Shown: positions 1-14,147, counted from the first letter of the stretch. The stretch is 64,000 nt of DNA from a virus (IMGVR_UViG_3300025389_001063), one strand, 5' to 3'. Program-made: numbers and translations. The notes: generated from the sequence alone by a model not told the origin.

Positions 1-91
1 CGTTGCTGCTAGAGCAAGAGCAGCAGGTTATATGGTTCTTTGGAAAGTAAAAGGCCACTTTAATCATATGCATATCGAAGCAAGAAGATAA
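1..91 (+). CDS. 3' end of a truncated gene, possibly a peptidase M15-like/extensin-like protein
   Basis: Frame from nt 2 reads VAARARAAGYMVLWKVKGHFNHMHIEARR*. The W..GH..HxH motif resembles M15-type Zn peptidases. Only 29 aa are visible. Confidence 0.35.
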   Translation, partial: VAARARAAGYMVLWKVKGHFNHMHIEARR

Positions 92-96
92 TCAAG

Positions 97-125
97 AAGG
101 GCGGTATGTCCGTTGCCGCCCTTTT
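97..125 (+). terminator. Rho-independent terminator-like hairpin
   Basis: AAGGGCGGTA-tgtccgt-TGCCGCCCTT followed by TT, directly after the stop codon at 89-91. Confidence 0.7.
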
Positions 126-134
126 AAATACTCT

Positions 135-578
135 ATGATTAAGATCTTAATTATGGGGTTACCCGGGGCAGGTAAGACTACATTTGCTCATAAGTTAATT
201 GACCGATTTCAAAAAGAAAATAAATCTTTTTCTTGGTACAATGGTGATCATATACGCAAGATGTATAACGATTGGGATTTTTCCGAAAAGGGAAGATTGA
301 GACAAACAAAAAGAATAACCAAAAAAGCAAATATATGTAAGGAAAATAAGATTATCGCTATTTGTGATTATGTCTGTCCAACTGAAGAATTACGTAAAAT
401 ATTTGATGCTGATATAACTGTGTGGATTGATACTATTAACAAAGGAAGATTTGAAGATACAAATAAACTATTTGAACCCCCCACTAAATACGACATTAAA
501 GTAACAGATTATAATATAGAAAAATGGATTGAAGATCTTATATTAAGGATTAATAATGAAGACAATAACAAAGAATGA
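135..578 (+). CDS. Adenylylsulfate (APS) kinase-like P-loop protein
   Basis: GLPGAGKTT Walker A, NGDHIR..DWDFSEKGRLRQ, and CDYVCPT as in CysC-like kinases. Confidence 0.7.
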   Translation: MIKILIMGLPGAGKTTFAHKLIDRFQKENKSFSWYNGDHIRKMYNDWDFSEKGRLRQTKRITKKANICKENKIIAICDYVCPTEELRKIFDADITVWIDTINKGRFEDTNKLFEPPTKYDIKVTDYNIEKWIEDLILRINNEDNNKE

Positions 579-1209
579 TCGATGGTTAGTATTAAGTCCA
601 GGAAGAACAGGTAGCGTAGTGTTATCTAATACTATATTAGAAGTTTATAGGGCAAATAATTTAAGTTTAAAGTTTTTGTGGACTGATCTTGATAAAATAA
701 AAGAAGCACCAAATGGATCATTAGTACATTGTCATGCAGAACCTTTTCCTTTTTCAACAGATATGTATTGTATTCTTAATGTTCGAGATCCAATCGATAT
801 TACATTTAGCCAACTTATTAGACCTTATATAGGAAGATGGCATTTACATAAAAGACATTTAAATGATGTTAAGATTACACCATTTCATTTAAATCCTTTA
901 GATTTTTTCAATCAATATACAGAAACACTAAGATGGTATAGAAATATTCCTAAAGATTTTTTACAAGTTGCACAAATAATAAATTATGAAAATTATTCAA
1001 AAGATCCTCTTCGTTTAGTACCTAAGTTATTAGAAATACCAGAATTAGATGAAGAAAATTTTAAAAGAGCAGATGAAATCAATTTGGTTAAAAATCCTGG
1101 ACCACATAAATCTTGGATTTCAAATTGGGATTTAATAGATCAAATAATTAAAAGTATTGAAAAAGAAAACAAAGAATTTTTCCAATCTTTATTGACAAAA
1201 ACTTTGTAA
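556..1209 (+). CDS. Sulfotransferase-like protein
   Basis: LVLSPGRTGS (5'-PSB-like loop) and NVRDPIDITFS (3'-PB-like motif). Overlaps the APS-kinase-like gene. Confidence 0.55.
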   Translation: MKTITKNDRWLVLSPGRTGSVVLSNTILEVYRANNLSLKFLWTDLDKIKEAPNGSLVHCHAEPFPFSTDMYCILNVRDPIDITFSQLIRPYIGRWHLHKRHLNDVKITPFHLNPLDFFNQYTETLRWYRNIPKDFLQVAQIINYENYSKDPLRLVPKLLEIPELDEENFKRADEINLVKNPGPHKSWISNWDLIDQIIKSIEKENKEFFQSLLTKTL

Positions 1210-1220
1210 TACTTTACTAT
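1192..1220 (+). promoter_or_regulatory. Sigma70-like (early) promoter
   Basis: TTGACA-17 nt-TACTAT, 12 nt upstream of tRNA-Asn. Confidence 0.65.
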
Positions 1221-1232
1221 ATATAAAGTTGT

Positions 1233-1308
1233 TTCCCGATAGCTCAGCTGGTAGAGCAAGCGACTGTTAATCGCTGGGTCCCTGGTTCGAGTCCAGGTCG
1301 GGGAGCCA
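1233..1308 (+). tRNA. tRNA-Asn(GTT)
   Basis: Complete cloverleaf, anticodon loop CTGTTAA, T-loop TTCGAGT, encoded CCA. Confidence 0.97.
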
Positions 1309-1322
1309 CCCTAGGAAATATA

Positions 1323-2171
1323 ATGACTGTTACATTTACCTTAGAGAATTTAGATAATAGTAAAATCGATATAAACTATGAACCTCTTCCTTATGAACAT
1401 TCACAATTGTGGTTGCAAGGAATTAAAGATTTTTTAGATACCGGAAATCCTTTAATTGATAACGAGAGGCTTTTTAATTTTGGTTCACATCAAAATGTAA
1501 TAGATTATTTAGATAAAACTAATAAACTTATCGACGAAATAAATTCTTATCTTCAAGGCATTGTAATGCCTAATATTAGATATGAAAATATACAGCAAGA
1601 TGTAAATTTTGTTCATATTAATTTTGCAGAAACTGATAGAGGTGCCGAATATACTAAATTCTGTAGACAAGAATTATGGAATGATCTAAATTCACGTTTA
1701 CACGGATTAGAAACTATTATGAGACATAATAATTCATATCCTCAAGGACAGATATTCGTTGAGTTAAATTGTCAAAGATATGTGTTACCCGAAAACGCAT
1801 ACAAGCATTTTACAGTAAAAGATACATTCGGTATTTGCTATGCCAACTATGCTCATATTGGACGTCATATACAAGAAGTAGTTTATGCAGAAGATGAATT
1901 AGCATATGATACTCACATTTTGCCTATGAGTAAAATATCAGGAAGTAGCAGACTATGGTTTGGAGACACTCTTCCAGCAGTTGTAGAACGATATCAAATG
2001 TTTCGAATAAAAAGATGGTTTGACAAACATAATATATCTAACATAGTTAATATGGAATGGGGTGACCCTCATCTAGCTATAGGATGGCTACCTGTAGCAA
2101 AAATGACAAATAATATTACTAAAGAAGATTTGCGAAATGTTGTAAAGATAAAGGAAATATCTTTACAATGA
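1323..2171 (+). CDS. Hypothetical protein (282 aa)
   Basis: Long ORF with AGGA RBS. No family recognised. Confidence 0.75.
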   Translation: MTVTFTLENLDNSKIDINYEPLPYEHSQLWLQGIKDFLDTGNPLIDNERLFNFGSHQNVIDYLDKTNKLIDEINSYLQGIVMPNIRYENIQQDVNFVHINFAETDRGAEYTKFCRQELWNDLNSRLHGLETIMRHNNSYPQGQIFVELNCQRYVLPENAYKHFTVKDTFGICYANYAHIGRHIQEVVYAEDELAYDTHILPMSKISGSSRLWFGDTLPAVVERYQMFRIKRWFDKHNISNIVNMEWGDPHLAIGWLPVAKMTNNITKEDLRNVVKIKEISLQ

Positions 2172-2890
2172 AATTCGAAATAGGAATGCCTCATTTAAAT
2201 TATAATGGCTTAGATCCTGTTTGGTTAGCAAAAACACTAGCAGAAATCCATTGGAATTTTTTAAAACATATCTCATCTATCAACGAAAATAATCAACGAT
2301 TATATGCTAGTGTTTTTGCTTTCGAAATTGATTTTAATAAAGGACAGGATTCTTTTAAAGAATTCGACGAAGCAGAGATTGTTAGTAAAATCTACAAATT
2401 TAACAATCAAATTTATAGATCTAAACATTCAATAATATGTACTGGAAATGTTGCTAGTGCAATTGTGGATACTATTTTTGTTAAAAAAGATTTAACATCT
2501 GGTTCTTTAATCAGAGATAATCCTATAGGATTTTCTAAAGGATTTGAAACAACTGATACTGTTTTTTTAAAAGAACATAAAGAATTAAAAAGAGAATTTT
2601 CTGTTATTAAAAACAAAGAAGATTATAAAGAATTACCATTTAGTTCTGAAGCATATTTTAATGGAGTTAAATTATTATACTTTGCTAATTTTTTAAATTT
2701 AGTTTATCTAAGTGAATCACTGACATTTAATAAAATTTTAAATCCCATCAAAAAAATTAAAACCTATTATTTTGGTAATATAACACCCGAAGAAAAAGTA
2801 TACGGATTAACTACAAAAATAGAAGAAAAATATCAAACAATATTACGATCAGATGATAGAATTATAGCATTCTGTGAAATAATAAGATAA
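2168..2890 (+). CDS. LnmK/Pnap_2097-family double-hotdog acyltransferase/decarboxylase-like protein
   Basis: IGMPHL..NGL...WLAKTLAEIHW, RLYAS.F and FNGVKLLYFANF match the remembered family pattern (GMPQL..GGL...WL.K..GD.HW; NGVGLLYFA.Y). Confidence 0.6.
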   Translation: MKFEIGMPHLNYNGLDPVWLAKTLAEIHWNFLKHISSINENNQRLYASVFAFEIDFNKGQDSFKEFDEAEIVSKIYKFNNQIYRSKHSIICTGNVASAIVDTIFVKKDLTSGSLIRDNPIGFSKGFETTDTVFLKEHKELKREFSVIKNKEDYKELPFSSEAYFNGVKLLYFANFLNLVYLSESLTFNKILNPIKKIKTYYFGNITPEEKVYGLTTKIEEKYQTILRSDDRIIAFCEIIR

Positions 2891-2932
2891 ATTATTAAAA
2901 GTGCGGAAAAAAACGTTCATAAGGAACATATC

Positions 2933-4747
2933 ATGAAAAAATGGAAAAGATATATACCATGGATTACTTTTGCTGTAGTTGCAGGTTTACTATTTGCAAT
3001 GTGGCAAAACCAAGAAAAACACCCAGATATTAGAGAAATTAATTTTAGTGATTTCTTAGTTCAAATCGATGAAGGGCGTGTACACGATGTCACAATTGAA
3101 GGAAATGAAGTTACAGGTCATTTTACTGACAATCGTACATTTGAAACATATCTACCAAGCGGACACACAATTATACCTAAACTAGAAGCAAAGAAAGTTC
3201 AAATTACAGCAAAACCTATAGGTGGAGAAAGTATATGGACTACTCTAGCATCTAACATTTTACCTTTAATTATTTTTATGTTTGTTTGGTTCTGGCTAGC
3301 AAGATCAATGACTGGTCGAGGAGGCGGCGGCGCTATGGGATTTGGAAAATCTAAAGCGAAATTACTCGAAACACAAGGAACAGTTAAATTTGACGATGTT
3401 GCTGGTGTTGATGAAGCAAAAGAAGATTTACAAGAAGTTGTTGAATTTCTTCGTGAACCTAATAAATTCCAATTAGTTGGTGGAAAAATACCGAGAGGCG
3501 TTCTGCTAGTCGGACCACCTGGTACAGGTAAAACATTACTTGCTAGAGCAGTAGCAGGTGAAGCAGGTGTACCATTCTTTAGTATTTCTGGTTCAGACTT
3601 TGTAGAAATGTTTGTTGGTGTTGGTGCTAGTCGTGTTCGTGACATGTTTGAACAAGCAAAGAAAAATGCTCCATGCATTATCTTTGTTGACGAAGTTGAT
3701 GCTGTTGGTAGACATCGCGGCGCGGGATTAGGCGGAGGAAACGACGAACGTGAACAAACACTTAATCAATTACTTGTTGAGATGGATGGCTTTAATGAAA
3801 ATGAAGGAATTATTATTATTGCAGCAACAAACAGAGTTGACGTATTAGATCCTGCCCTACTTCGTCCAGGTCGCTTTGATCGTCAAATTACTGTTCCTAA
3901 TCCAGACTTTATCGGACGTGAAAAGATCTTAAAGGTTCATACACGTAAAGTTCCTTTGTCTCCAGATGTTGATCTTAAAGTTGTAGCAAGAGGAACACCT
4001 GGATTTAGTGGTGCTGACTTAATGAATCTTGTTAATGAGGCTGCATTACTTGCTGCTCGTCGTGGTAAAAGAATTGTTATGAAGAAAGAGTTTGAAGATG
4101 CTCGAGATAAGATTCTTATGGGAGCAGAACGTCGTACACTATTAATGACTGAAGAAGAAAAGAAAATGACTGCTTATCACGAAGGTGGACATGCTCTTGT
4201 TAGTCTTAACATGCCAGGTTCTACGCCAATTCATAAAGCAACGATCATTCCACGTGGTCGTGCTTTAGGTATGGTCCAGTCATTACCTGAACGTGATGAG
4301 ATTAGTCAAACATATGAACAATTTATTGCTATGTTAGCAATGGCAATGGGAGGGCGTGTTGCTGAAGAATTAATTTTTGGACACGATAAGGTAAGTTCAG
4401 GTGCTGCTGGTGATATCCAACAAGCAACCAAGATTGCTCGTGCTATGGTTACACAACTTGGATTTAGTGACAAACTTGGAACAGTTGCTTATAGTGAACC
4501 ACAACACGAACAGTTCCTTGGATACTCAATGGGTCGTGAACAATCTGTATCACAAGAAACCCAAAAGACTATCGATCATGAAGTTCGTCGCTTTATTCAA
4601 GAAGGATATGAAACAGCAAAGAAGATCTTAACTGAGAAGAGAGATCAACTTGACAAACTTGCAGAAGCTCTTATAATGTATGAGACACTAAGCGGTCAAG
4701 AGATAATCGATCTTTTGGACGGTAAGGAACCAGTCAGGGAGTCTTAA
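2933..4747 (+). CDS. ftsH: ATP-dependent zinc metalloprotease FtsH
   Basis: Two TM segments, GPPGTGKT Walker A, IIFVDEVD Walker B, SRH ([20 protein letters not shown]), HEGGH Zn motif. Confidence 0.98.
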
Positions 4748-5241
4748 TGACTATCTTTGTAATTTCGGACACACACTTTGGACATGCTAACATTCTGAAA
4801 TTTACAAGACAGGATGGCAGTCCAATGCGTGTCTTTGAATCAGTGGAGCATATGAATGAAACAATGGTTGAAAACTGGAATCGAGTTGTCACCGACAGCG
4901 ATATTGTCTATCATCTTGGCGATGTTTATTTTGGGAAGGGTCACGAGATACTTGGTCGGCTAAAAGGTCGTAAGCGTCTTATCCTCGGAAATCATGATAA
5001 CGGCAAGTGCCAGAATTTACACAAACATTTCCAGAAGATTATGATGTGGAGAATGTTTCCAGAATTTAATTGTCTGCTAACTCATGTACCTGTTCATGCA
5101 AGTGTACTTTATAAGACAAAGTATAACCTACACGGACATGTACATCATAATAGTCTTCCTGAAGAAAACTACATTAATTGTTGTGTAGAACCCTTAAACT
5201 TTACTCCTACTCCTTTGGAATCTTTAATTCCAAAGGAATAA
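4747..5241 (+). CDS. Calcineurin-like metallophosphoesterase
   Basis: SDTHFGH, HLGDV, GNHD and HGHVH motifs. Confidence 0.9.
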   Translation: MTIFVISDTHFGHANILKFTRQDGSPMRVFESVEHMNETMVENWNRVVTDSDIVYHLGDVYFGKGHEILGRLKGRKRLILGNHDNGKCQNLHKHFQKIMMWRMFPEFNCLLTHVPVHASVLYKTKYNLHGHVHHNSLPEENYINCCVEPLNFTPTPLESLIPKE

Positions 5242-5248
5242 ATACCAT

Positions 5249-5374
5249 ATGAAAAGATTAATTTTAGTTACATCAATATTATCGTTCGGAGCAGGTCTTA
5301 TTGTTGGGTGGAATCTTCTACCTCAACCACAATGGCTATTTGATGCTTACGGATATTTGATATTATTCAAATAA
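5249..5374 (+). CDS. Small membrane protein (41 aa)
   Basis: Read by hand: MKRLILVTSILSFGAGLIVGWNLLPQPQWLFDAYGYLILFK. Below the ORF-track length cutoff. Confidence 0.55.
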   Translation: MKRLILVTSILSFGAGLIVGWNLLPQPQWLFDAYGYLILFK

Positions 5375-5382
5375 ATAAAAGT

Positions 5383-5826
5383 ATGAAAAAACTACTACTT
5401 TTATTCTTTCTATTCACTTCTTCTGCATTTGCTGTAGACTTACCTATTTTACCAAATCCCAAACTTACTCCTGGTGATATAGATCATAATGCTTCAACTA
5501 AAGAATTTTGTACTCCTGGGTATACTCGTAAAGTTAGAAATGTTCCACTGTCTGTAAAAAGACAGGTTTTTGTTCTTTATGGAATTGATCCAACATCTAG
5601 CGATTTCGAAGTAGATCATCTTATTAGTTTAGAATTAGGCGGATCTAATGATATTAAGAATTTATGGCCACAAAGTTATGATACACAACCATGGAATGCT
5701 TATAAGAAAGATGGTTTAGAGCATAGATTACATGCTTTAGTTTGTAATGGCAAAATAGACGTAAGAGAAGCACAAAAAGCCATTGCATCTGATTGGATTT
5801 CAGCGTATAACAAATATATGAATTAA
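5383..5826 (+). CDS. Secreted HNH-like protein
   Basis: Signal peptide MKKLLLLFFLFTSSAFA, then EVDHLISLELGGSNDIKNLWPQ (HNH-like core). Confidence 0.65.
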   Translation: MKKLLLLFFLFTSSAFAVDLPILPNPKLTPGDIDHNASTKEFCTPGYTRKVRNVPLSVKRQVFVLYGIDPTSSDFEVDHLISLELGGSNDIKNLWPQSYDTQPWNAYKKDGLEHRLHALVCNGKIDVREAQKAIASDWISAYNKYMN

Positions 5827-5832
5827 TAGAAA

Positions 5833-5909
5833 GGCTTGGTATCTCAGTTGGTTAGAGTGCTGCCCTGTCACGGCAGAGGTCGCCGGTTCGAGCCCGGTCC
5901 AGGTCGCCA
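5833..5909 (+). tRNA. tRNA-Asp(GTC)
   Basis: Cloverleaf, anticodon loop CTGTCAC, encoded CCA. Confidence 0.97.
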
Positions 5910-5922
5910 GTTTGTTAAATAG

Positions 5923-5944
5923 TTGTAGTTAACGGAGACTACAA
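5923..5944 (+). promoter_or_regulatory. RBS/AUG-occluding hairpin downstream of a late promoter-like TAAATA
   Basis: TTGTAGT (5923-5929) pairs with ACTACAA (5938-5944, ending on the A of ATG). GGAG lies in the loop; TAAATA at 5916-5921. Confidence 0.5.
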
Positions 5945-6219
5945 TGAAAAAGAAACTTCTTACACTATTAACGGTGCTTGGACTTACTATTGCTACAGTT
6001 GCTCCTGCTAATGCTTGGTACCGTGGATATTATGGCGGATATTATGGCGGATGGGGTTACGGTGGTGCAATGGCTGGGGCTGCTATTGCAGGTGCTCTTG
6101 CTGGGGCTGCTATTGCTAATTCATATGCTTATCCATATGGAGGATATTATTATGTACCACAATATTATTATCCTGCGCCAACATACTACTATTACCCAAA
6201 TTATTACTATGGATGGTAA
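5944..6219 (+). CDS. Secreted Gly/Tyr-rich low-complexity protein
   Basis: Signal peptide ending ANA, then YRGYYGGYYGGWG, a GAAIAGALAGAAIA glycine zipper and a Tyr/Pro-rich tail. Confidence 0.75.
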   Translation: MKKKLLTLLTVLGLTIATVAPANAWYRGYYGGYYGGWGYGGAMAGAAIAGALAGAAIANSYAYPYGGYYYVPQYYYPAPTYYYYPNYYYGW

Positions 6220-6654
6220 ATGTTACACATAATAAATGATATTTCAGATCCTTTATTAGAATTAGTAAAGGATGATCCTGTTCGATCAGATATCTATCCT
6301 ATAGAAAGAATTATGGGTAATAAAGAAATTATGGTTTTGTTGGATCCTATTAGTAAAGAACCACAATCGGTAATTTGTGTATCTTATCAAGATCATATAC
6401 CTGCAGATATAAGAGATTTAATATCTTCTGATTCTCCTATATTTGCTGTATTCTATACTATCTGGAGTTACAAAACAGGTTCAGGAAGAAGATTGCTCTT
6501 TAAGGCAAAAGATTATATAAAAGAACATAGACCAGAAATTAAACGTTTCATAACTCTTAGTCCAAAAACATTTACTGCTAGTAGATTTCATACTGACAAT
6601 GGTGCTAAAATATTAAGAGTTAACACAGACAGCGTCAATTATGAATACCAATAA
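6220..6654 (+). CDS. Hypothetical protein, possibly GNAT-like
   Basis: FYTIWSYKTGSGRRLL...RFITLSP...RFHTDNGA resembles acetyltransferase motif A/B. Confidence 0.45.
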   Translation: MLHIINDISDPLLELVKDDPVRSDIYPIERIMGNKEIMVLLDPISKEPQSVICVSYQDHIPADIRDLISSDSPIFAVFYTIWSYKTGSGRRLLFKAKDYIKEHRPEIKRFITLSPKTFTASRFHTDNGAKILRVNTDSVNYEYQ

Positions 6655-6655
6655 C

Positions 6656-6745
6656 GGAGAGGTGGCCGAGTGGTTTAAGGCAGCGGTCTTGAAAACCGCC
6701 GTAGGTGAAAGCCTACCGTGAGTTCGAATCTCACCCTCTCCGCCA
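6656..6745 (+). tRNA. tRNA-Ser(TGA)
   Basis: Cloverleaf with long variable arm, anticodon loop CTTGAAA, encoded CCA. Confidence 0.97.
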
Positions 6746-6775
6746 TACGATATATAATATATTAGGAGAATTAAT

Positions 6776-6946
6776 ATGCGTATAATTTTATCTTTACTAA
6801 CTATTATGGCTTTAGGAAATTCCGCTTTTGCTGGTCCTATTCCAAGAGTTGATCATTCATCGAAATCAAAATCAACACAAGAATGGAAACCACCACTAGA
6901 GATTCAGAAAAAAGAAAGTATTGTTGTTGCTCCTACAAAGAAATAA
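6776..6946 (+). CDS. Small secreted protein (56 aa)
   Basis: AGGAG RBS; MRIILSLLTIMALGNSAFAGPIP... signal-peptide-like start. Read by hand. Confidence 0.6.
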   Translation: MRIILSLLTIMALGNSAFAGPIPRVDHSSKSKSTQEWKPPLEIQKKESIVVAPTKK

Positions 6947-6947
6947 T

Positions 6948-7289
6948 ATGAGATATATTTTTCTTGCAATGTTTGCAGGAGTAATAATCTATAGTATAGT
7001 CAACACTAAACTAAGCGTTGACTATCAATGTTATAGTAAAGAAGGCCTTAATAAATTAATCGACGAGAAAAAATATCAAACTCTAATTCAAACTTTTACC
7101 GATGATGGTAAAATAAATGAAACAATGTTTACACCTTACTATGATAAAGAAACAATTATTGTTGAATATAAAAAACCAAATACAGAAAAATATTGTATTA
7201 AATCAATAACACACGGTACAATGGTAAATGAATATTCTGTTGAAATGCTTTATGAGGCTCTTGAAAAATATAAAGGAAAACGAGCATGA
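6948..7289 (+). CDS. Hypothetical membrane-anchored protein
   Basis: ORF track 6921-7289. Probable ATG start at 6948 (MRYIFLAMFAGVIIYSIV, TM/signal). Confidence 0.65.
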   Translation: MRYIFLAMFAGVIIYSIVNTKLSVDYQCYSKEGLNKLIDEKKYQTLIQTFTDDGKINETMFTPYYDKETIIVEYKKPNTEKYCIKSITHGTMVNEYSVEMLYEALEKYKGKRA

Positions 7290-7492
7290 GATACATAATT
7301 CTTTTATCACTATTTCTAGCAGGATGTAATTCGTTAGCCCCAGTTAACGCTGGATTAGATATTGTCGACGTTGCGGGCAAATTAGGTCTTGACGCAGATA
7401 CTAATGGTGTCTATTATAAACATAGAGGACCAATAGAACATGTATGTGAATATAAGGTTAAACAGAATTTTACAGCATTTCGTCCTTGCTAA
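7286..7492 (+). CDS. Putative lipoprotein
   Basis: MRYIILLSLFLAGC lipobox (LAGC). Confidence 0.65.
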   Translation: MRYIILLSLFLAGCNSLAPVNAGLDIVDVAGKLGLDADTNGVYYKHRGPIEHVCEYKVKQNFTAFRPC

Positions 7493-7506
7493 TAATGGAG
7501 ATTTAA

Positions 7507-7647
7507 ATGTTTAATATTTCAGACGAAACTAAAGCAGAAGCAGTTGCACAGATGAAGGAAATTCTTGGACATGACATTCCAGAAGAAAAACTACAAGAAG
7601 CATTTGATGCTGCTGTTAAAGTAGTTGCTAGAAGTTTTGGAATGTAA
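7507..7647 (+). CDS. Small hypothetical protein (46 aa)
   Basis: GGAG RBS; MFNISDETKAEAVAQMKEILG... Read by hand. Confidence 0.55.
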   Translation: MFNISDETKAEAVAQMKEILGHDIPEEKLQEAFDAAVKVVARSFGM

Positions 7648-7846
7648 TTATGGATAAGTGGGACGAATTGAAACTATTATTAGAGGCAGATTTGTCTCAC
7701 ACCGTCCATTATTCTCATGATAAAAATTATGAACATGGGCAATTATTACGTGTCAAGGAATGGATGGAGTATCTTGAGAAGAAAGAATTAACTAAAGAAA
7801 ATTCATCATAATTTACGATAAATACTATCTTTGTTAGGAGTATAGT

Positions 7847-8017
7847 ATGAAAACATTCGTTATGGCCACACTTTTAATGTGCCTAAATAGTGGCCCATGT
7901 GAACAAAAACAAGTTCAGATTGAAAGTAGAGCCTGCACAATAGGAACACTAGATGCAAAAGTTCCTATGAACGGTGAATATGAAGATGCAAAAATTCATG
8001 TGAAGTGCCACAAATAA
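7847..8017 (+). CDS. Small secreted 4-Cys protein
   Basis: AGGAG RBS; MKTFVMATLLMCLNSGPCEQKQVQIESRACTIG...IHVKCHK. Read by hand. Confidence 0.65.
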   Translation: MKTFVMATLLMCLNSGPCEQKQVQIESRACTIGTLDAKVPMNGEYEDAKIHVKCHK

Positions 8018-8087
8018 CACTAAATATATTTGGCTTTTGCCAAAAATGATTGTAGTATACAATTATACACACACAAGGAGAGACACA

Positions 8088-8267
8088 ATGAAGACCCTAA
8101 TCGCAGCCACTCTATACACATGTCTTAATATCAGCGGAACAAATGTTTGTCAATACAAAGATGTTCAGTTAGAAAAAGATACTTGTAAGACTGGTGTTAT
8201 TGAACAGACCCTTCCAAGAGGTACTGAACTTACTAAGATTAAAGTCGCTACTATATGTAAGGGTTAA
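8088..8267 (+). CDS. Small secreted 4-Cys protein
   Basis: AAGGAG RBS before ATG 8088; MKTLIAATLYTCLNISGTNVCQYKDVQLEKDTC...ATICKG. Confidence 0.65.
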   Translation: MKTLIAATLYTCLNISGTNVCQYKDVQLEKDTCKTGVIEQTLPRGTELTKIKVATICKG

Positions 8268-8269
8268 TA

Positions 8270-8497
8270 TTGATAAAATATATTCCAATAATTTTGATTT
8301 GTCATGTTAGCGTTCCTTCGTATGACTGTAAATCAGAACATAAAAATGTAACAACTGCTATTGGGGAATTTCAGAATACCCCGATGGCTTGTTTAGTTGA
8401 GGGGCAAACTAGACTTGCGAGTCTAGCATTTGCTCCAAAACTAGGAGATCCTTACTATGCTAAAATTAAATGTGTTCCAAAGATGTTTATCGATTAA
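8270..8497 (+). CDS. Small secreted 4-Cys protein (Rhizobiales-type)
   Basis: IILICHVSVPSYDC...TPMACLVEGQTRLAS...YAKIKC. Confidence 0.6.
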   Translation: MIKYIPIILICHVSVPSYDCKSEHKNVTTAIGEFQNTPMACLVEGQTRLASLAFAPKLGDPYYAKIKCVPKMFID

Positions 8498-8507
8498 AGG
8501 ACAAAAA

Positions 8508-8720
8508 ATGAACTTGTTTGAACTGTCGACTGGCGAAACTATAGTTGTAGAAAAAATTGAATCTATCACTAATGTTGATCACAAAAATGGATATAAAGGT
8601 TCTTTATATGAATTTACCATCTTTATGGATTCTGGACGAACAATTCATGTATCTAACGAAGATAATAAACCACTCATCAAAGAACAAGAAAAACTACTAT
8701 ACATAATCAAGAGAACTTGA
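8508..8720 (+). CDS. Hypothetical protein
   Basis: AAGGA RBS before ATG 8508 within track ORF 8457-8720. Confidence 0.6.
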   Translation: MNLFELSTGETIVVEKIESITNVDHKNGYKGSLYEFTIFMDSGRTIHVSNEDNKPLIKEQEKLLYIIKRT

Positions 8721-8745
8721 CAAGTATCACTTAACCTGTTAAATT
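8717..8745 (+). promoter_or_regulatory. Sigma70-like promoter
   Basis: TTGACA-17 nt-TAAATT upstream of tRNA-Leu and kdsC. Confidence 0.6.
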
Positions 8746-8753
8746 AATATCAT

Positions 8754-8838
8754 GCGCTTGTGGTGGAATTGGTAGACACGGCAGACTTAGAATCTGTTGC
8801 TTCACGGCGTGGGAGTTCAAGTCTCTCCAGGCGCACCA
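8754..8838 (+). tRNA. tRNA-Leu(TAG)
   Basis: Cloverleaf with variable arm, anticodon loop CTTAGAA, encoded CCA. Confidence 0.96.
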
Positions 8839-8859
8839 AAATATTGAAGGTTTAATAAA

Positions 8860-9369
8860 ATGCCGTTCAAATCAAAATTATCTAAATGTAAATTAGTTAT
8901 TACCGATGTAGATGGGGTACTTACAGATGGTAGAATCTATTATACAGAGCATGGTGAAACAATGAAGGAGTTTCATGCTCGAGATGGTTTTGGTGTTATA
9001 ATGTTACAAAAGATGGAAATTAAAACGGCAGTTATAAGTGGACTCGGTTCTGAGGCTTTACAAAAACGAGTTTCCGATTTAGGTATTGAATATAGTTTTT
9101 ATCATGTAAAAGATAAATCTGCGATATGTAAAACACTTATGGAAAATTTATCTCTTCATCCAAATGAGGTAATTTGTATTGGTGATGAAATAATAGATCT
9201 TCCAATGTTTGAAGTTTGTGGAACATCTTTTGCTGTAAATGATGCTCCAATATACATAAAAGAAAAAGCCGAAAGAGTTCTTTTTTCGAATGGTGGAAGA
9301 GGAGCGTTTCGAGAAGTAGTAGATGAGATAGTAAAAGCAAAAGGGTTGCCTTTCGAACACTTTGTTTAA
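8860..9369 (+). CDS. kdsC: 3-deoxy-D-manno-octulosonate 8-phosphate phosphatase (YrbI/KdsC, HAD family)
   Basis: ITDVDGVLTDG, F.ARDGFG, AVISG, IGDEIID and GGRGAFREVVD.I motifs. Confidence 0.88.
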   Translation: MPFKSKLSKCKLVITDVDGVLTDGRIYYTEHGETMKEFHARDGFGVIMLQKMEIKTAVISGLGSEALQKRVSDLGIEYSFYHVKDKSAICKTLMENLSLHPNEVICIGDEIIDLPMFEVCGTSFAVNDAPIYIKEKAERVLFSNGGRGAFREVVDEIVKAKGLPFEHFV

Positions 9370-9380
9370 GGGACCTTTTG

Positions 9381-9456
9381 GATCCCTTAGCTCAGTAGGT
9401 AGAGCACTCGACTTTTAATCGAGTTGTCCTGGGTTCGAATCCCAGAGGGATCACCA
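9381..9456 (+). tRNA. tRNA-Lys(TTT)
   Basis: Cloverleaf, anticodon loop CTTTTAA, encoded CCA. Confidence 0.97.
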
Positions 9457-9459
9457 TTT

Positions 9460-9485
9460 TGGGGTATCGTCTAATGGTAGGACAG
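9460..9485 (+). pseudogene. 5' fragment of a tRNA (Gln-like): acceptor 5' strand plus D-arm only
   Basis: TGGGGTA-TC-GTCTAATGGTAGGAC-AG resembles the start of bacterial tRNA-Gln (TGGGGTATCG...). It stops at the base of the anticodon stem. Confidence 0.7.
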
Positions 9486-9493
9486 TATAAATA
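9486..9493 (+). promoter_or_regulatory. T4-type late promoter
   Basis: Exact TATAAATA, 4 nt before the HNH ATG. Confidence 0.65.
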
Positions 9494-9497
9494 CTAT

Positions 9498-10037
9498 ATG
9501 TTATCCAAAAATATTGATGAAAATTTAATTAAAGAATTATTAGATAGCGGAAAGACTAATAAAGAGATTTCTTTTATTCTAGATATTTCGGCACCAACTG
9601 TTACATATTGGAGAAAGAAACTTAAAAAAGGATTATCAATAAAAAGATACAATTGGAAAGAAATACAAGAAGCACACAATAATGGATCTTCTTATTCAAA
9701 TTTAAGAAAAGAATTTGGTGTAACTAAACGGTCAATCGAAATGGCTAAGAAGAGGGGAGATTTTAGTACAAGAAAAATTCCTTGTATGGATCCGGAACAA
9801 GCAAAATTAAGAAAAAGAAATAGAAGAGAAGCATGGATGAGATATCATAGCCGAAAGAAATATCAGACTCCCGCCGACGAAGATATAAAAAAACTACAAG
9901 AATTTTATGCTAACTGTCCACCTGGATACGAAGTCGATCATATTATACCAATTTCTAAGGGAGGATTACATTCAATATCTAATTTACAATATTTAACAAA
10001 ATCTGAAAATCGTGCTAAAAGTAATAAAATAATTTAA
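9498..10037 (+). CDS. HNH homing endonuclease with N-terminal HTH-like region
   Basis: CPPGYEVDHIIPISKGGLHSISNLQYLTKSENRAKSN HNH core. N-terminal EISFILDISAPTVTYW is HTH-like. Probable ATG 9498. Confidence 0.85.
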   Translation: MLSKNIDENLIKELLDSGKTNKEISFILDISAPTVTYWRKKLKKGLSIKRYNWKEIQEAHNNGSSYSNLRKEFGVTKRSIEMAKKRGDFSTRKIPCMDPEQAKLRKRNRREAWMRYHSRKKYQTPADEDIKKLQEFYANCPPGYEVDHIIPISKGGLHSISNLQYLTKSENRAKSNKII

Positions 10038-10112
10038 TGGGGAGTGGTGCAATGGTAGTCACGTCGGACTTTGACTCCGAAAATGATCGTTCGAGTCGAT
10101 CCTCCCCAGCCA
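10038..10112 (+). tRNA. tRNA-Gln(TTG)
   Basis: Cloverleaf starting immediately after the HNH stop codon, anticodon loop CTTTGAC, encoded CCA. Confidence 0.93.
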
Positions 10113-10114
10113 AA

Positions 10115-10122
10115 TATAAATA
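10115..10122 (+). promoter_or_regulatory. T4-type late promoter
   Basis: Exact TATAAATA, 6 nt upstream of the interrupted tRNA-Gly. Confidence 0.55.
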
Positions 10123-10128
10123 CCTCAT

Positions 10129-10227
10129 GCGGGTGTAACTCAGAGGTAGAGTTCTTGCTTGCCTGAAGACATTAAGGTGTCTTGAATAAGCAAGATGTCG
10201 AGGGTTCGAATCCCTTCGCCCGCTCCA
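10129..10227 (+). tRNA. tRNA-Gly(GCC) with a 24-nt insertion (possible intron) in the anticodon loop
   Basis: GCGGGTG/CGCCCGC acceptor stem with U73 and CCA (Gly identity); intact D and T arms; stem CTTGC/GCAAG. Removing 10164-10187 restores loop TTGCCAA. Confidence 0.85.
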
Positions 10228-10238
10228 AAATCTCCAGG

Positions 10239-10266
10239 TTGACATATCTATAATAGACTGTATAGT
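10239..10266 (+). promoter_or_regulatory. Sigma70-like promoter
   Basis: TTGACA-16 nt-TATAGT with TG just upstream of the -10 element. Confidence 0.6.
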
Positions 10267-10311
10267 TATAATTGTAAGGTGAGTGAAAGACTTACTATTA
10301 TGGAGATTGAG

Positions 10312-11667
10312 ATGAGCAAGTCTAAAGACATAACGAAGACTCCGTTTGACCCTAGTGAAGGTTGGAAAAGTCGCAAAGTGCCTTTGGTTCAGGTTGCTAG
10401 AAATATTAATAAAAGATTAAAAATTAAAAAGCCAAATACTTCTTTTAATTATAAAGATGTGTTAAAATTTGATTGGGTACCTGTTAAGAAATGTATTCTT
10501 AATTATGACCGGCAGAGATATCCAGAGCCAACTCACATTGAAAAATTGTTGATTAAATGGAATATTATTTGTGCTACCCCTTTACAGGCTAGATATAGTA
10601 AAGAAGAAGATTTGTATTATATTGCAGACGGGCAACAACACGGTATTGGTTGGGTTTTGCAATATGGTGAAGATAGTCTTGTTCCAGTTTGTTATGTTGA
10701 GAGTGAAGATGAAAATATTGAATCTATTCAACTTCTTGCTCTCAATACTGATTCTGAACCTATGGCAAAGTATTTTATCCATAAGCAGAAATGTATAATG
10801 GGAGATGCTGAGTCTATTGCTCTCGAGAATACAGTCGTTAATGCCGGATGTTCAACTGGATATAACAAGAGGGCGCCTGGCGTTATTACTCTTATCAATG
10901 ACTTACTGATTGCTCAAAAGGATTATGGATTAGAAGATCTAGGAAAAGTTCTTTCTTTTATGAGGAGACATTTTCCTACTGAAAAAATTCATACTGCTAA
11001 TATGTTAGGGTTTCTTAAAGTTAAAGAACTTCTTACACTCGAACAGAAGTATAGTGATACACTGTTTGAGGATATCTTTAATGCATCTACTGATTACTTC
11101 GATGCAGGTGATGCCTTACATAACAATATTAAAAGAGAATTTGAAATTTTATATCCAACAAATTACAGAGGCATGGGAGTTAGAGAAAAAGTTGCTAGTG
11201 GAATTATTAGTATCTATGAAAAAATCGAAGGGAAAGAACTTTGTTCAAAACCCTTTAATGTAGATATGCCTTATAATAAAAATATACCTAACTACGATCC
11301 TAGCACTTATCATACTTGGAAATTATATCGTACCGTTTGTAAAACTGAGGACTTCCGTCCAGTTTGGGCTCACAAAAATGCAGATAAATGGGGGGTAGAA
11401 TACAATGACTTTCTTCCTCTTTGTCACGATACTTGTTCTTGCTGTGGTAGTGAACTTGACTATGGTTTAGGGAAAAATAATAATAATAAGTTAGATGAAA
11501 ATACTCCTTCAACTGATCATCGTATTCCTCGTAGTAAGGGAGGAACAAATGATGTAACTAATCTTCAGGTTATATGTATGAAATGTAACACATTAAAAAG
11601 TAATTCTACTCCTGATGATATTCCACGATACAAGAAGATTATCGAGATGCACGAGAGTGTCAACTAA
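10312..11667 (+). CDS. ParB/Srx-like (DUF6551-type) N-terminal domain fused to a C-terminal HNH nuclease
   Basis: NYDRQR...YYIADGQQH in the N-terminal part. CSCCG..STDHRIPRSKGGTNDVTNLQVICMKCNTLKS at the C-terminus. Track start 10279 (GTG); GGAG RBS favours ATG 10312. Confidence 0.65.
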   Translation: MSKSKDITKTPFDPSEGWKSRKVPLVQVARNINKRLKIKKPNTSFNYKDVLKFDWVPVKKCILNYDRQRYPEPTHIEKLLIKWNIICATPLQARYSKEEDLYYIADGQQHGIGWVLQYGEDSLVPVCYVESEDENIESIQLLALNTDSEPMAKYFIHKQKCIMGDAESIALENTVVNAGCSTGYNKRAPGVITLINDLLIAQKDYGLEDLGKVLSFMRRHFPTEKIHTANMLGFLKVKELLTLEQKYSDTLFEDIFNASTDYFDAGDALHNNIKREFEILYPTNYRGMGVREKVASGIISIYEKIEGKELCSKPFNVDMPYNKNIPNYDPSTYHTWKLYRTVCKTEDFRPVWAHKNADKWGVEYNDFLPLCHDTCSCCGSELDYGLGKNNNNKLDENTPSTDHRIPRSKGGTNDVTNLQVICMKCNTLKSNSTPDDIPRYKKIIEMHESVN

Positions 11668-11723
11668 AAATGTGTTAAATCTGCAACACCGTTAATAAAG
11701 ATTAACAATATGTGAAAAAACAC

Positions 11724-11753
11724 ATTGACGTTAACCATTATAACCGCTAAAGT
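11724..11753 (+). promoter_or_regulatory. Sigma70-like promoter of the omp gene
   Basis: TTGACG-17 nt-TAAAGT upstream of an AGGAG RBS. Confidence 0.5.
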
Positions 11754-11781
11754 AGAAAATGTAACAAAGAGGAGAAGTTAT

Positions 11782-12570
11782 ATGAAAAAGACAGTTACTA
11801 CTTTGCTTGCTTCGGCAGCATTAATTAGCGCAGCTCAGGCAGCCGATCTTCCAAGCAGGAAGGCACCTGTTGCTCCGCCTCCACCAGTTTTTACTTGGAC
11901 TGGTGCTTATGTAGGTGCTAATGTCGGCGGTGGATGGAAGTCCAACGGCAATGGCAACGTTTATGCTTTTAATCCAAATACATGGCAGAATGTTCTTTGG
12001 TCACGCAACGGCAATGGTAATGCTGGTGTTGTTGGAGGCATTCAGGCTGGTTATAACTACCAGATCGGTTCGATGTTTGTTGTTGGTGCTGAAACTGACT
12101 TTCAAGGCTCAACAATCAGCGGCGGTTCAAATAGTGCTTATAACGTAGCAGCCGTTAACGCAGTTTACCCAGGTTGGGTTGCTGGATATACAGGCGGTAA
12201 CAACCTTAATTGGTTTGGTACTGTTCGTGGTAGAGTTGGTGTTGTTCCGCTAATGCCTACTTTACTTGTTTATGGTACAGGTGGTTTTGCTTACGGCAAC
12301 GTTTCAAGCAATGGTACATATGGTTCACAGAATGCTACACAGACGGGCTGGACAGCCGGCGGCGGCGTCGAGTGGGCTTTTGCTCCTGCTTGGTCCGTTA
12401 AGGCAGAATACCTCTACACAGATATTAGCGGTGGCAATCAGAACAAATTGTTTAACAGTCCTGCTTCTTTAAACAATGTTAATAACAGCACAAAGTTCAA
12501 TACAGTACGTGCTGGTGTTAACTATCACTTTAATGCAAGTGATGTTCTTCCAGTACTTGCTAAGTACTGA
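11782..12570 (+). CDS. Omp25/RopB/Omp31-type outer-membrane beta-barrel protein
   Basis: Signal peptide, then AADLPSRKAPVAPPPPVFTWTGAYVGANVGGGW, GGIQAGYNYQ, GTVRGRVG, GWTAGGGVEWAF, SVKAEYLY and VRAGVNYHF...LAKY. ATG 11782 with AGGAG RBS. Confidence 0.9.
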   Translation: MKKTVTTLLASAALISAAQAADLPSRKAPVAPPPPVFTWTGAYVGANVGGGWKSNGNGNVYAFNPNTWQNVLWSRNGNGNAGVVGGIQAGYNYQIGSMFVVGAETDFQGSTISGGSNSAYNVAAVNAVYPGWVAGYTGGNNLNWFGTVRGRVGVVPLMPTLLVYGTGGFAYGNVSSNGTYGSQNATQTGWTAGGGVEWAFAPAWSVKAEYLYTDISGGNQNKLFNSPASLNNVNNSTKFNTVRAGVNYHFNASDVLPVLAKY

Positions 12571-12578
12571 GTTAAAAA

Positions 12579-12600
12579 GAGTAGCCCTACGGGGCTACTC
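12579..12600 (+). terminator. Terminator-like hairpin
   Basis: GAGTAGCCC-TACG-GGGCTACTC, a 9-bp stem. A-tract upstream, weak T-tract downstream. Confidence 0.6.
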
Positions 12601-12615
12601 ACTTAAATATTCCGC

Positions 12616-12690
12616 GGGCGGTTGGCACAGTGGAAGCGCATCTGGTTTACACCCAGAGGGTCGGGAGTTCGAACCTCTCACCGCCCACCA
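12616..12690 (+). tRNA. tRNA-Val(TAC)
   Basis: Cloverleaf, anticodon loop TTTACAC, encoded CCA. Confidence 0.95.
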
Positions 12691-12704
12691 TAACTAAATA
12701 CAAT

Positions 12705-13094
12705 ATGAGAGAATTAAGAAAACTTGCCCAACTAGTTGAGGCTAACAGCGGATCAATGCAACAAGATGTTGCTGCGGCTATTCCAGCACTCTATGTTGTA
12801 CCATCTTTAACAAACGGAAATCCTTATTATCAATACAGAGTGGGATTGGCATTTGCTGCTGCTCGTGCTAACGAACAAGGATTAGTTCCCGAAGTAGATA
12901 AATCTAGTGTGTATGGAGAAAATATGGTTCTCGTGGCAGATACCGAAGAAGAACGAAGAACTCTCGAACTAGCATTTAAAATGATGGGTGTTACCGATGC
13001 TAAAATGATCACAACTTCTACTAGCGATGAGGCAAAAGATGTTTCTAAAGTTAGTCCGGTTGCTAAATTTGTTCCAACTAAACGCCCTAGGTAA
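12705..13094 (+). CDS. Hypothetical protein, possibly virion-internal
   Basis: ATG 12705, 4 nt after TAAATA; begins MRELRKLAQLVE. Confidence 0.7.
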   Translation: MRELRKLAQLVEANSGSMQQDVAAAIPALYVVPSLTNGNPYYQYRVGLAFAAARANEQGLVPEVDKSSVYGENMVLVADTEEERRTLELAFKMMGVTDAKMITTSTSDEAKDVSKVSPVAKFVPTKRPR

Positions 13095-13102
13095 ATAGGT
13101 TT

Positions 13103-13642
13103 ATGAACCTCAAAGATGAAGATTGTTTTTATCCCATAAACGGAGACACTTCAGTTGTTGAAAATTATTGTAAAAATAATTTCAATAATTTTGATTTTGT
13201 ATGTCCTAACGAAAATTTCAATGTTTGGAAATGTTATCATTTTAAATATGATGAGGTTAGAAAATTAATTAGTAGTGATCCAACACTTTCAAAAATCGAT
13301 CAAGTACTAGAAATTTCTCATTGTTTTGTTATGGAAATTTCTAAAAATTCTTGGGTTGGGTGGCATTTTGATTACCCTAGGAAGGGACCAGCATTAAACT
13401 TATTATTAACACCTGATGCAAGAAGTTTTTCTTTATTCACCGATACACTTTATGATATGTCAAATATTGTTGAATGTAAATATCAACCACATCAATACCT
13501 TTTATATAATACAGATTTAATTCATTCTATTGTAAACTTTGATCAACCAAGATATCTATTTTCTGCTCTCTTTAAACGAGGAAAAGAAAATCTAGTTTGG
13601 CAAGAAGCTATAATGTTACTAGATAATATAAAATATGATTAA
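13103..13642 (+). CDS. Cupin/2OG-Fe(II)-like (double-stranded beta-helix) protein
   Basis: WVGWHFD...ALNLLL...LLYNTDLIHSIVN...RYLFS (HxD...H). Confidence 0.55.
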   Translation: MNLKDEDCFYPINGDTSVVENYCKNNFNNFDFVCPNENFNVWKCYHFKYDEVRKLISSDPTLSKIDQVLEISHCFVMEISKNSWVGWHFDYPRKGPALNLLLTPDARSFSLFTDTLYDMSNIVECKYQPHQYLLYNTDLIHSIVNFDQPRYLFSALFKRGKENLVWQEAIMLLDNIKYD

Positions 13643-14147
13643 TCAACGAGATTGTTTTTACAAACTTACTACAGATACAAAAAATATTACAGATTATTTT
13701 AAAAATAATTTTAATAATTTAAATTGGCACGAGCATGAATCACTTTGGAATTTATCGTTTGTACCATTAGAAACTTTATTAGAAAATAAAACACTTGCAA
13801 AAATTCACAAACAATTCGAAATAGAAGGTGCTGGATTTATAAAAATGGATCCAGAACAATGTTATAAATGGCACGTAGACTATAGTAGAGGACCTGCTAT
13901 TAATATGCAAATGAATCCAGAAATTCAAAGTCTTTGTTTATTTGAAACAGAAGAATTAAACAAAGAAAGAATAAGATATCTCGAATTAAAATATCAACTA
14001 GATACTTTTTATCTATTCAATACTCAAATTAATCATACCATTATAACTTTTTCTGAAACAAGATATTTGTTTACACTACAATTTAAAAAAACAAAAGAAG
14101 AACTTTCCTATTATGATGTCCTAAAATTTTGGACCGACTTGACATAA
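13635..14147 (+). CDS. Cupin/2OG-Fe(II)-like protein, paralogue of the preceding gene
   Basis: CYKWHVD...GPAINMQM...YLFNTQINHTII...RYLFTL. Confidence 0.55.
   Translation: MINQRDCFYKLTTDTKNITDYFKNNFNNLNWHEHESLWNLSFVPLETLLENKTLAKIHKQFEIEGAGFIKMDPEQCYKWHVDYSRGPAINMQMNPEIQSLCLFETEELNKERIRYLELKYQLDTFYLFNTQINHTIITFSETRYLFTLQFKKTKEELSYYDVLKFWTDLT

Follow-up and report, generated by a model that had tools for sequence, protein, structure and literature searches.

A free-standing HNH endonuclease gene in a viral tRNA array lies between a 26-nt piece of a tRNA-Gln gene and a complete tRNA-Gln gene, and the question raised by this locus is whether the endonuclease gene has broken the one and supplied the other in its place. 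The locus was analysed within a window of 64,000 nt (the whole stretch of DNA under study, to which all unprefixed coordinates refer), which is part of a 107-kb IMG/VR virus record with a CheckV completeness estimate of 28%. The window has a G+C content of about 33%, almost every gene is on one strand, and a loose tRNA array spans positions 1233-12690. An identical copy of the HNH protein is also encoded on a 351-kb contig, which makes this a large phage. No close relative of the window was found in the phage GenBank collection. The answer that we consider likely is that the locus is a free-standing HTH-HNH homing endonuclease cassette, which targets tRNA-Gln genes and carries its own replacement for them.

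Organization of the locus

The upstream neighbour is a tRNA-Lys(UUU) gene at 9381-9456 on the plus strand (ARAGORN; Rfam, 76.6 bits). It is followed by TTT and then by the stub, TGGGGTATCGTCTAATGGTAGGACAG, a 26-nt tRNA-Gln 5' end at 9460-9485 (+) that matches intact tRNA-Gln genes. The promoter-like motif TATAAATA occupies 9486-9493 (+) and stands 4 nt (CTAT) ahead of the ATG of the HTH-HNH gene. This gene, which is free-standing and encodes 179 aa, is located at 9498-10037 (+; ATG at 9498, TAA at 10035-10037) and matches the Pfam families HNH, HNH_4 and GerE. A complete tRNA-Gln(UUG) gene with encoded CCA extends from 10038 to 10112 (+; ARAGORN; Rfam tRNA, 58.1 bits). A second TATAAATA is found directly after the unit at 10115-10122 (+), 6 nt before G1 of tRNA-Gly. 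Re-reading of the sequence, together with ARAGORN, Rfam and Pfam, showed that the coordinates of the original prediction were all correct. Its claims that a 26-nt tRNA 5' fragment ends at 9485 with the motif and the HNH ORF directly after it, and that a complete, divergent tRNA-Gln(UUG) begins one base past the HNH stop codon (10038), were borne out.

The tRNA-Gly(GCC) gene downstream (10129-10227) has a 24-nt hairpin-forming insert just after the anticodon; it scored 54.9 bits with the Rfam tRNA model and was missed by ARAGORN. The tRNA-Gly of locus L033 has the same anticodon stem (CTTGC/GCAAG) without the insert, which is also absent from L002. A second, larger HNH protein of 462 aa (10279-11667; HNH_5/HNH in the C-terminal part) is encoded directly after tRNA-Gly, and a strong sigma-70-like promoter, TTGACA-16-TATAGT, precedes its gene at 10239-10266. 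The sigma-70-like promoter is also present in L002 and L033, there ahead of other genes. An outer-membrane beta-barrel gene with a signal peptide (11725-12570; Pfam OMP_b-brl, 60 bits) is conserved in L002 and hints at a Gram-negative, possibly alphaproteobacterial, host.

Identity of the stub

In tRNA numbering, the stub runs from the acceptor 5' strand through positions 8-9 and the complete D-arm to position 26, and ends with the first anticodon-stem base. In six viral contigs, tRNA-Gln(UUG) genes called by ARAGORN begin with exactly the first 24 nt of the stub. All 26 nt are identical in the tRNA-Gln genes of L003, L006 and L007, which continue ...GGACAG|CGGATTTTGATTCCG. Judged by these identities, the stub is a genuine piece of a tRNA-Gln gene and chance resemblance is ruled out.

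The fragment's acceptor strand had been described as pairing imperfectly with the downstream 3' end, and indeed 5 of 7 bases pair (TGGGGTA with CTCCCCA). The acceptor of the carried tRNA-Gln pairs fully with itself (TGGGGAG with CTCCCCA). The mismatched stub and the self-consistent downstream tRNA must therefore derive from two separate genes. Group I introns with endonuclease ORFs can occur in phage tRNA genes, and the stub might accordingly be read as the 5' exon of an intron-containing or split tRNA-Gln, spliced to the 3' part of the downstream gene. However, that gene is complete and self-pairing, the 5/7 match leaves the supposed exons poorly paired, Rfam found no intron family in 1-14000 at E<=1, and the acceptor part of the stub is absent in five homologue loci (L033, L035, L038, L008 and L121). 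A spliced tRNA-Gln is thus extremely improbable.

Elsewhere the acceptor part varies by context. In the window it is that of the native L002/L003-type gene (TGGGGTATC); the variants are TGAGGGATC in L036 and L120/L125, TGAGAGATC in L123 and GGGGATC in L127. The D-stem (GTCT...AGGAC) is intact in the ten main-group loci, and the two most distant ones, L044 and L128 (50% identity), have a stub of another tRNA-Gln type (GCCAAGTTGGTCTAAGGC). A search of viral contigs with the junction pattern GGTAGGACA-N1-2-TATAAATAC returned only the contig of L008 itself and three unrelated, GC-rich chance matches.

Some predicted homologue N-termini (MVGQYKY) are the translation of the stub plus TATAAATA. A true start within or before the stub, at the D-loop ATG (9474) or a TTG (9459), which would make the stub coding, was considered and rejected, the frame being closed in L033 and shifted in L036. 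The in-frame D-loop ATG in particular is not the start, because it is followed by a stop in L033 and is out of frame in L036.

In L041, the stub (TGAGAGATCGTCTAAAGGCAGGAC, within 2440-2500) matches at 23 of 24 positions the 5' end of an intact tRNA-Gln(CUG) gene located about 700 nt upstream (L041:1660-1733). A single phage can thus have a tRNA-Gln(CUG) that resembles the stub, in addition to the stub itself and the carried tRNA-Gln(UUG).

An empty site and a closely related occupied site

Alignment showed a tRNA-Lys upstream context common to the window, L002, L033 and L036. Locus L002, on a 40.9-kb viral contig, is syntenic with the window and fairly distant from it (about 70-72% nucleotide identity in flanking genes), and the two share the tRNA gene order Ser(UGA)-Leu(UAG)-Lys(UUU)-Gln(UUG)-Gly(GCC)-Val(UAC). 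After tRNA-Lys, L002 has an intact tRNA-Gln gene (TGGGGTATCG...) with a normal anticodon arm, in which 24 nt of the stub are identical (27/27 if the 3 nt before the stub are counted). No HNH homologue was found anywhere in the 40.9-kb record. Relatives without the HNH gene had been expected to carry an intact tRNA-Gln and not the fragment; L002 agrees on both points, having the intact gene at the syntenic site and no fragment. By this alignment, the ancestral site is shown to have held an intact tRNA-Gln gene, which in the window is cut off after the first anticodon-stem base. The HNH gene is thus present or absent at one and the same locus, the window and L033 being occupied and L002 being empty.

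The HNH protein of L033/L034 is 81% identical to that of the window. The gene order there is HAD(KdsC)-tRNA-Lys-TTT-stub-TATAAATA-HNH-tRNA-Gln, followed by a 258-aa ORF and tRNA-Gly(GCC). Nucleotide identity between the window and L033 is 75.6% in the HAD gene, 83% in tRNA-Lys, 80.5% in the HNH gene and 76% in tRNA-Gln. Because cassette and flanks have diverged about equally, vertical descent is indicated here and not a recent jump, and the cassette looks vertically inherited in the window/L033 lineage.

The D-arm of the stub together with TATAAATA is identical in 25/25 positions, a run that we calculate to have a chance of roughly 0.002 if the background identity is about 78%; the stretch would be either constrained or recently converted. 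In L033, TAATAT stands in place of the nine acceptor-side bases of the window, a difference that is not well explained by a single ancestral insertion with neutral decay. The differing acceptor parts of the window, L033 and L036, all of which have the order Lys-Gln-Gly, suggest repeated re-invasion or replacement of one cassette by another. The D-arm of the stub appears to travel with the cassette or to be constrained, and so to be more than a local scar.

Recurrence of the cassette

About 35 full-length homologues (176-200 aa, 47-82% identity) were found in a search of 5.8 billion proteins. The DNA around homologues, obtained from protein look-ups and from viral and metagenome scans, gave 151 distinct loci for analysis. 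All 13 distinct full-length loci with flanking sequence (50-81% identity) contained a stub, a TAAATA-type motif, the HNH gene and a complete tRNA-Gln. In each of the 13 the stub is a tRNA-Gln 5' fragment that ends at about position 25-30 and is followed by the motif, TATAAATA or CTAAATA is located 4-10 nt before the start codon, and the tRNA-Gln(UUG) lies on the same strand between -65 and +40 nt from the HNH stop codon. A promoter-HNH-tRNA unit, as originally proposed, thus recurs with a tRNA-Gln stub at every full-length homologue locus, the motif being its putative promoter.

The tRNA arrays around the 13 loci are of at least 8 kinds: the upstream neighbours are Lys, Trp, Leu, Ile, Pro or ORFs, and the downstream neighbours Gly, Ile, Asn, Glu, Ser, Val or Met. 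Among cassettes in unrelated contexts, homology to the window starts at 9454-9469 and ends at 10113-10122, which defines a mobile unit bounded by tRNA-Gln on both sides. The best reading is a unit of four parts, namely the tRNA-Gln D-arm stub, the TATAAATA-type late promoter, the HNH gene and a complete tRNA-Gln. Phage tRNA arrays do hold duplicated and decaying tRNA genes, so the stub could in principle be left from an unrelated tandem duplication and decay of tRNA-Gln, with the HNH gene landing between the copies. Against such an origin, the stub adjoins the motif at the same tRNA position throughout the family and in different arrays, and 13 chance repeats are not credible; we consider it very improbable.

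Several homologue C-termini are the translated 5' end of tRNA-Gln (IGE; GNGVTGNT...), and from these the linkage between the HNH gene and tRNA-Gln would be an old one. In L036:2501-3114, P0004 and P0034, the HNH frame continues through most of tRNA-Gln (C-terminal GNGVTGNT...), so RNase P processing would strip the message of its stop codon. In another locus with a Gln-type HNH gene (L126:440-900), tRNA-Gln has been replaced by a small ORF and only TTCCCCAGCCA is left of it; CCAAACACGGTTGACA is repeated on either side of the small ORF.

The promoter-like motif

The motif TATAAATA is the T4 late-promoter consensus, and we infer that the copy at 9486-9493 acts as a promoter. It is depleted in the window, where 3 copies were found against 13.7 +/- 3.7 expected. 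These are located at 9486, 10115 and 19707, and two of the three flank the HNH-tRNA-Gln unit. A related arrangement, TAAATA-N5-AT|G, immediately precedes G1 of tRNA-Gly in the window as well as in L033 and L002. A transcription signal is favoured, because a translation signal in front of G1 of tRNA-Gly would make no sense; the position suggests a promoter from which transcription would start at or near the mature 5' end of tRNA-Gly. TAAATA-N4/5-ATG was not enriched across the window (9 versus 5.3 expected; 11 of 100 shuffles reached 9). A sigma-70 promoter with the stub as its spacer was also considered and rejected, the -35 element being inconsistent and no promoter-like site being reported there.

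The endonuclease

The HNH ORF matched PF01844 with 28.9 bits (cut-off 21.4) and PF13395 with 26.9 bits (cut-off 22), and Pfam placed a GerE-type HTH at its N-terminus. Only HNH and HTH families were among the Pfam matches; GIY-YIG was not. The catalytic residues D147, H148, N162 and N171 are invariant in 37 homologues, whose alignment has the invariant core YEVDHIIPxSKGGxH...NLQYLT..NR. The AlphaFold (AF2) model, with a mean pLDDT of 86.8, has three-helix bundles at 8-41 and 53-86, a long helix at 99-121 and a beta-beta-alpha HNH finger at 144-175 (strands 144-148 and 163-167, helix 168-175). In the model, a long helix links two HTH domains to an HNH nuclease domain at the C-terminus. A tandem HTH tethered to a small nuclease is the usual modular build of homing endonucleases such as I-TevI and I-HmuI, which bind in one place and cut nearby. 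Among solved structures, the HNH domains of Cas9 and of Cas8f-HNH fusions came closest by sequence profile. When the whole model was compared with the PDB by Foldseek, there was no match at E<=0.001; the HNH domain alone was matched, weakly.

The window and L033 are 88.3%, 86.5% and 76.1% identical at the three codon positions of the HNH gene, which points to purifying selection on the protein. This result, with the invariant catalytic residues, bears on whether the cassette might be a fixed relic, that is, an old invasion inherited vertically, whose nuclease is inactive or has been repurposed for excluding co-infecting phages or for regulating the tRNA operon. The equal divergence of cassette and flanks between the window and L033 would fit such a relic, and the D-arm and promoter, identical in 25/25 positions against a background of about 78%, hint at a regulatory role of the stub. 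Against a relic stand the invariant catalytic residues in 37 homologues and the codon-position pattern. Moreover, the presence of the unit in numerous arrays that are unrelated to each other means that the family is mobile or was so until recently, and marker exclusion is the homing mechanism seen from the other side. A fixed relic therefore seems quite improbable to us, and a functional homing endonuclease is preferred.

The Gln-type N-terminal domain formed its own BLAST cluster, apart from the Trp/Met/Arg/Cys and Pro types, at the better of two cut points; the first had merged everything, and the second separated Gln and Pro. This clustering does not establish a rule of one DNA-binding domain per tRNA, since the Trp, Met, Arg and Cys types share one cluster.

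A mirror arrangement in the wider family

Relatives that share only the C-terminal part of the protein (residues about 97-179) are encoded antisense to the tRNA array. At the stop codon they meet or run into the 3' end of a complete tRNA gene, for Trp, Met, Arg, Pro or Cys; for tRNA-Trp, the offset from the HNH stop is most often 0. On the start side, read in the orientation of the tRNAs, the sequence is CAT-N4-5-TATTTAT, the reverse of ATAAATA-N-ATG. It is adjoined by a 3' fragment of a tRNA of the same type, consisting of the variable loop, T-arm and acceptor strand with a matching discriminator base and CCA. By a rough raw count, the promoter-like motif was present in 49/53 mirror loci and the stub (T-loop plus N73-CCA, outside any called tRNA) in 25/53. 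One rule would then describe the sequences in both orientations: a stub, a promoter-like motif, the HNH gene and a complete tRNA of the type of the stub.

Mirror loci include those with tRNA-Trp (L011, L131, L144, L168, L061, L160, L054 and L145), Cys (L165, L177), Arg (L159), Pro (L181) and Met (L143, L161, L196, L167). At L011:95-170, two consecutive tRNA-Trp-like 3' stubs, each ending in GCCA, lie between the HNH start and tRNA-Tyr. This double stub may record two successive invasions.

The carried tRNA-Gln

The carried gene is the sole tRNA-Gln found by ARAGORN in the 107-kb record. It has U1-A72, G2-C71, G3-C70, G10, G73 and the UUG anticodon, and with these features it plausibly does the work of the destroyed gene. 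Carried tRNA-Gln genes are very diverse, and every one of them differs from its own stub; in alignment each stub and carried tRNA form a diverging pair, to which neighbouring tRNAs add T-arm noise. Avoidance of the stub-type D-arm by carried copies was not significant, this D-arm being present in 1/12 carried versus 3/17 unlinked tRNA-Gln genes (loci retrieved by means of the stub pattern were left out of the latter). That the carried copy is immune is presumed.

These data have to be weighed against a cassette that is mobile with a nuclease that does not recognise tRNA-Gln. The tRNA would then be cargo, either a spare against a host anticodon nuclease or a substrate for SegB-like amplification, and the stub would come from recombination between tRNA-Gln genes. 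The diversity of the carried genes and the lack of a statistical signal that they avoid one target sequence are compatible with cargo, and SegB promotes the amplification of neighbouring tRNA genes as an anti-defence measure (PMC13096335). On the other hand, the junction falls at tRNA position 25-30 with a Gln-type stub in 13/13 loci, the stub type matches the carried tRNA type in the other subfamilies, and the Gln cassettes have an N-terminal DNA-binding domain cluster of their own. This constant junction, the matching of types and the separate domain cluster are predicted by site-specific targeting and not by cargo linkage alone, so we hold the cargo explanation to be unlikely and keep to an enzyme that targets tRNA-Gln.

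Proposed mechanism

By analogy with SegB and other intronless homing, we infer that the enzyme cuts tRNA-Gln genes. In a mixed infection, its tandem HTH domains would bind an unoccupied tRNA-Gln gene, which would be cut or nicked near the junction of the D-stem and the anticodon stem. Repair of the break would use the genome with the cassette as its template. Of the old tRNA-Gln, the left end would remain as the stub and the 3' part would be replaced, because the incoming tRNA-Gln is both cargo and right-hand homology. The phage would retain a working tRNA-Gln, and for this reason the insertion would cost it little. The occupied site would no longer be a target, since the recognition region is split and the carried D-arm differs. 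RNase P probably cuts the tRNA out of the 3' end of the HNH transcript, and this cleavage would also limit expression of the nuclease or shorten the life of its message. An idea akin to this has been discussed for nuclease ORFs in tRNA clusters (PMC2330249).

A more speculative extension, possible though we doubt it, treats the D-arm stub as a working part. Together with the carried tRNA-Gln it would provide portable homology arms, with which the cassette could home into any tRNA-Gln gene irrespective of the surrounding genome. Placed directly beside the TATAAATA promoter, it may also act as an operator that the HTH domains bind to repress their own gene, and the wider family would be a set of tRNA-specific cassettes by which phage tRNA arrays are constantly overwritten and reshuffled. 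Self-repression has a precedent in I-TevI, which represses its own gene at its late promoter.

Implications

The cassette shows that a selfish nuclease can occupy an essential small RNA gene cheaply, by bringing a spare. Large phages turn over and duplicate their tRNA genes quickly and have them in mosaic order, and cassettes of this kind offer a concrete explanation of how this happens. They also account for orphan tRNA fragments beside HNH genes, which annotators need no longer treat as noise. The family supplies a set of natural enzymes, and since the stub beside each gene would reveal the DNA target of the enzyme, specificity is directly testable. Phage tRNAs counter the tRNA-cutting defences of their hosts, and for this reason cassettes that swap tRNA alleles may matter in the conflict between phage and host.

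Comparison with known systems

SegB of T4 is a free-standing GIY-YIG endonuclease in the T4 tRNA cluster, which cleaves inside the tRNA genes of phages lacking SegB, drives its own preferential inheritance along with that of the adjacent tRNA genes, and occurs in some related phages but not in others (PMC2330249). According to a 2026 paper, SegB associates broadly with tRNA genes and helps them to be amplified as a counter to defences (PMC13096335). Like SegB, the present gene is a free-standing endonuclease gene between phage tRNA genes. The present element is not of the SegB family, because the catalytic domain differs (HNH versus GIY-YIG), and SegB recognises a generic T-loop motif of many tRNAs, whereas the present HTH-HNH protein is tied to one tRNA type. 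Unlike SegB, the present gene lies inside its former target, leaves a stub and is fused base to base to a replacement; this stub-plus-replacement design is not described for SegB.

F-TflI/II/IV are site-specific HNH endonucleases of phage T5 (2004; cited in PMC2330249, PMC10644984). Like the present gene, they are encoded within a tRNA cluster, and T5-like phages differ in which of these ORFs they have. The citing papers mention no stub or replacement tRNA for them. Intronless homing that disrupts the target is represented in the citing literature by T4 SegF, SegG and MobE and by Aeh1 MobE, which splits nrdA (cited in PMC2330249, PMC2790892). As described there, such elements spread by cutting the empty allele and co-convert the flanks while the function of the broken gene is kept, and the same would apply here, with cleavage presumed. 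In the Aeh1-type split two halves work together; in the present cassette a whole second copy of the RNA gene keeps the function.

Integrase-borne elements insert into tRNA genes and repair them with a 3' segment that they bring along. As in the cassette, the insert ends up flanked by an intact tRNA on one side and a partial duplicate on the other. Unlike them, the present cassette has neither an integrase nor exact att repeats; it carries a complete, divergent tRNA, and what is left over is the 5' part of the old gene in the case of Gln and the 3' part in the case of Trp and others. No published description of the stub-plus-replacement design was found in a full-text literature search. The cassette works like SegB and F-TflI/II/IV and differs from them in its design, with a gene inside its former target, a stub and a fused replacement tRNA.
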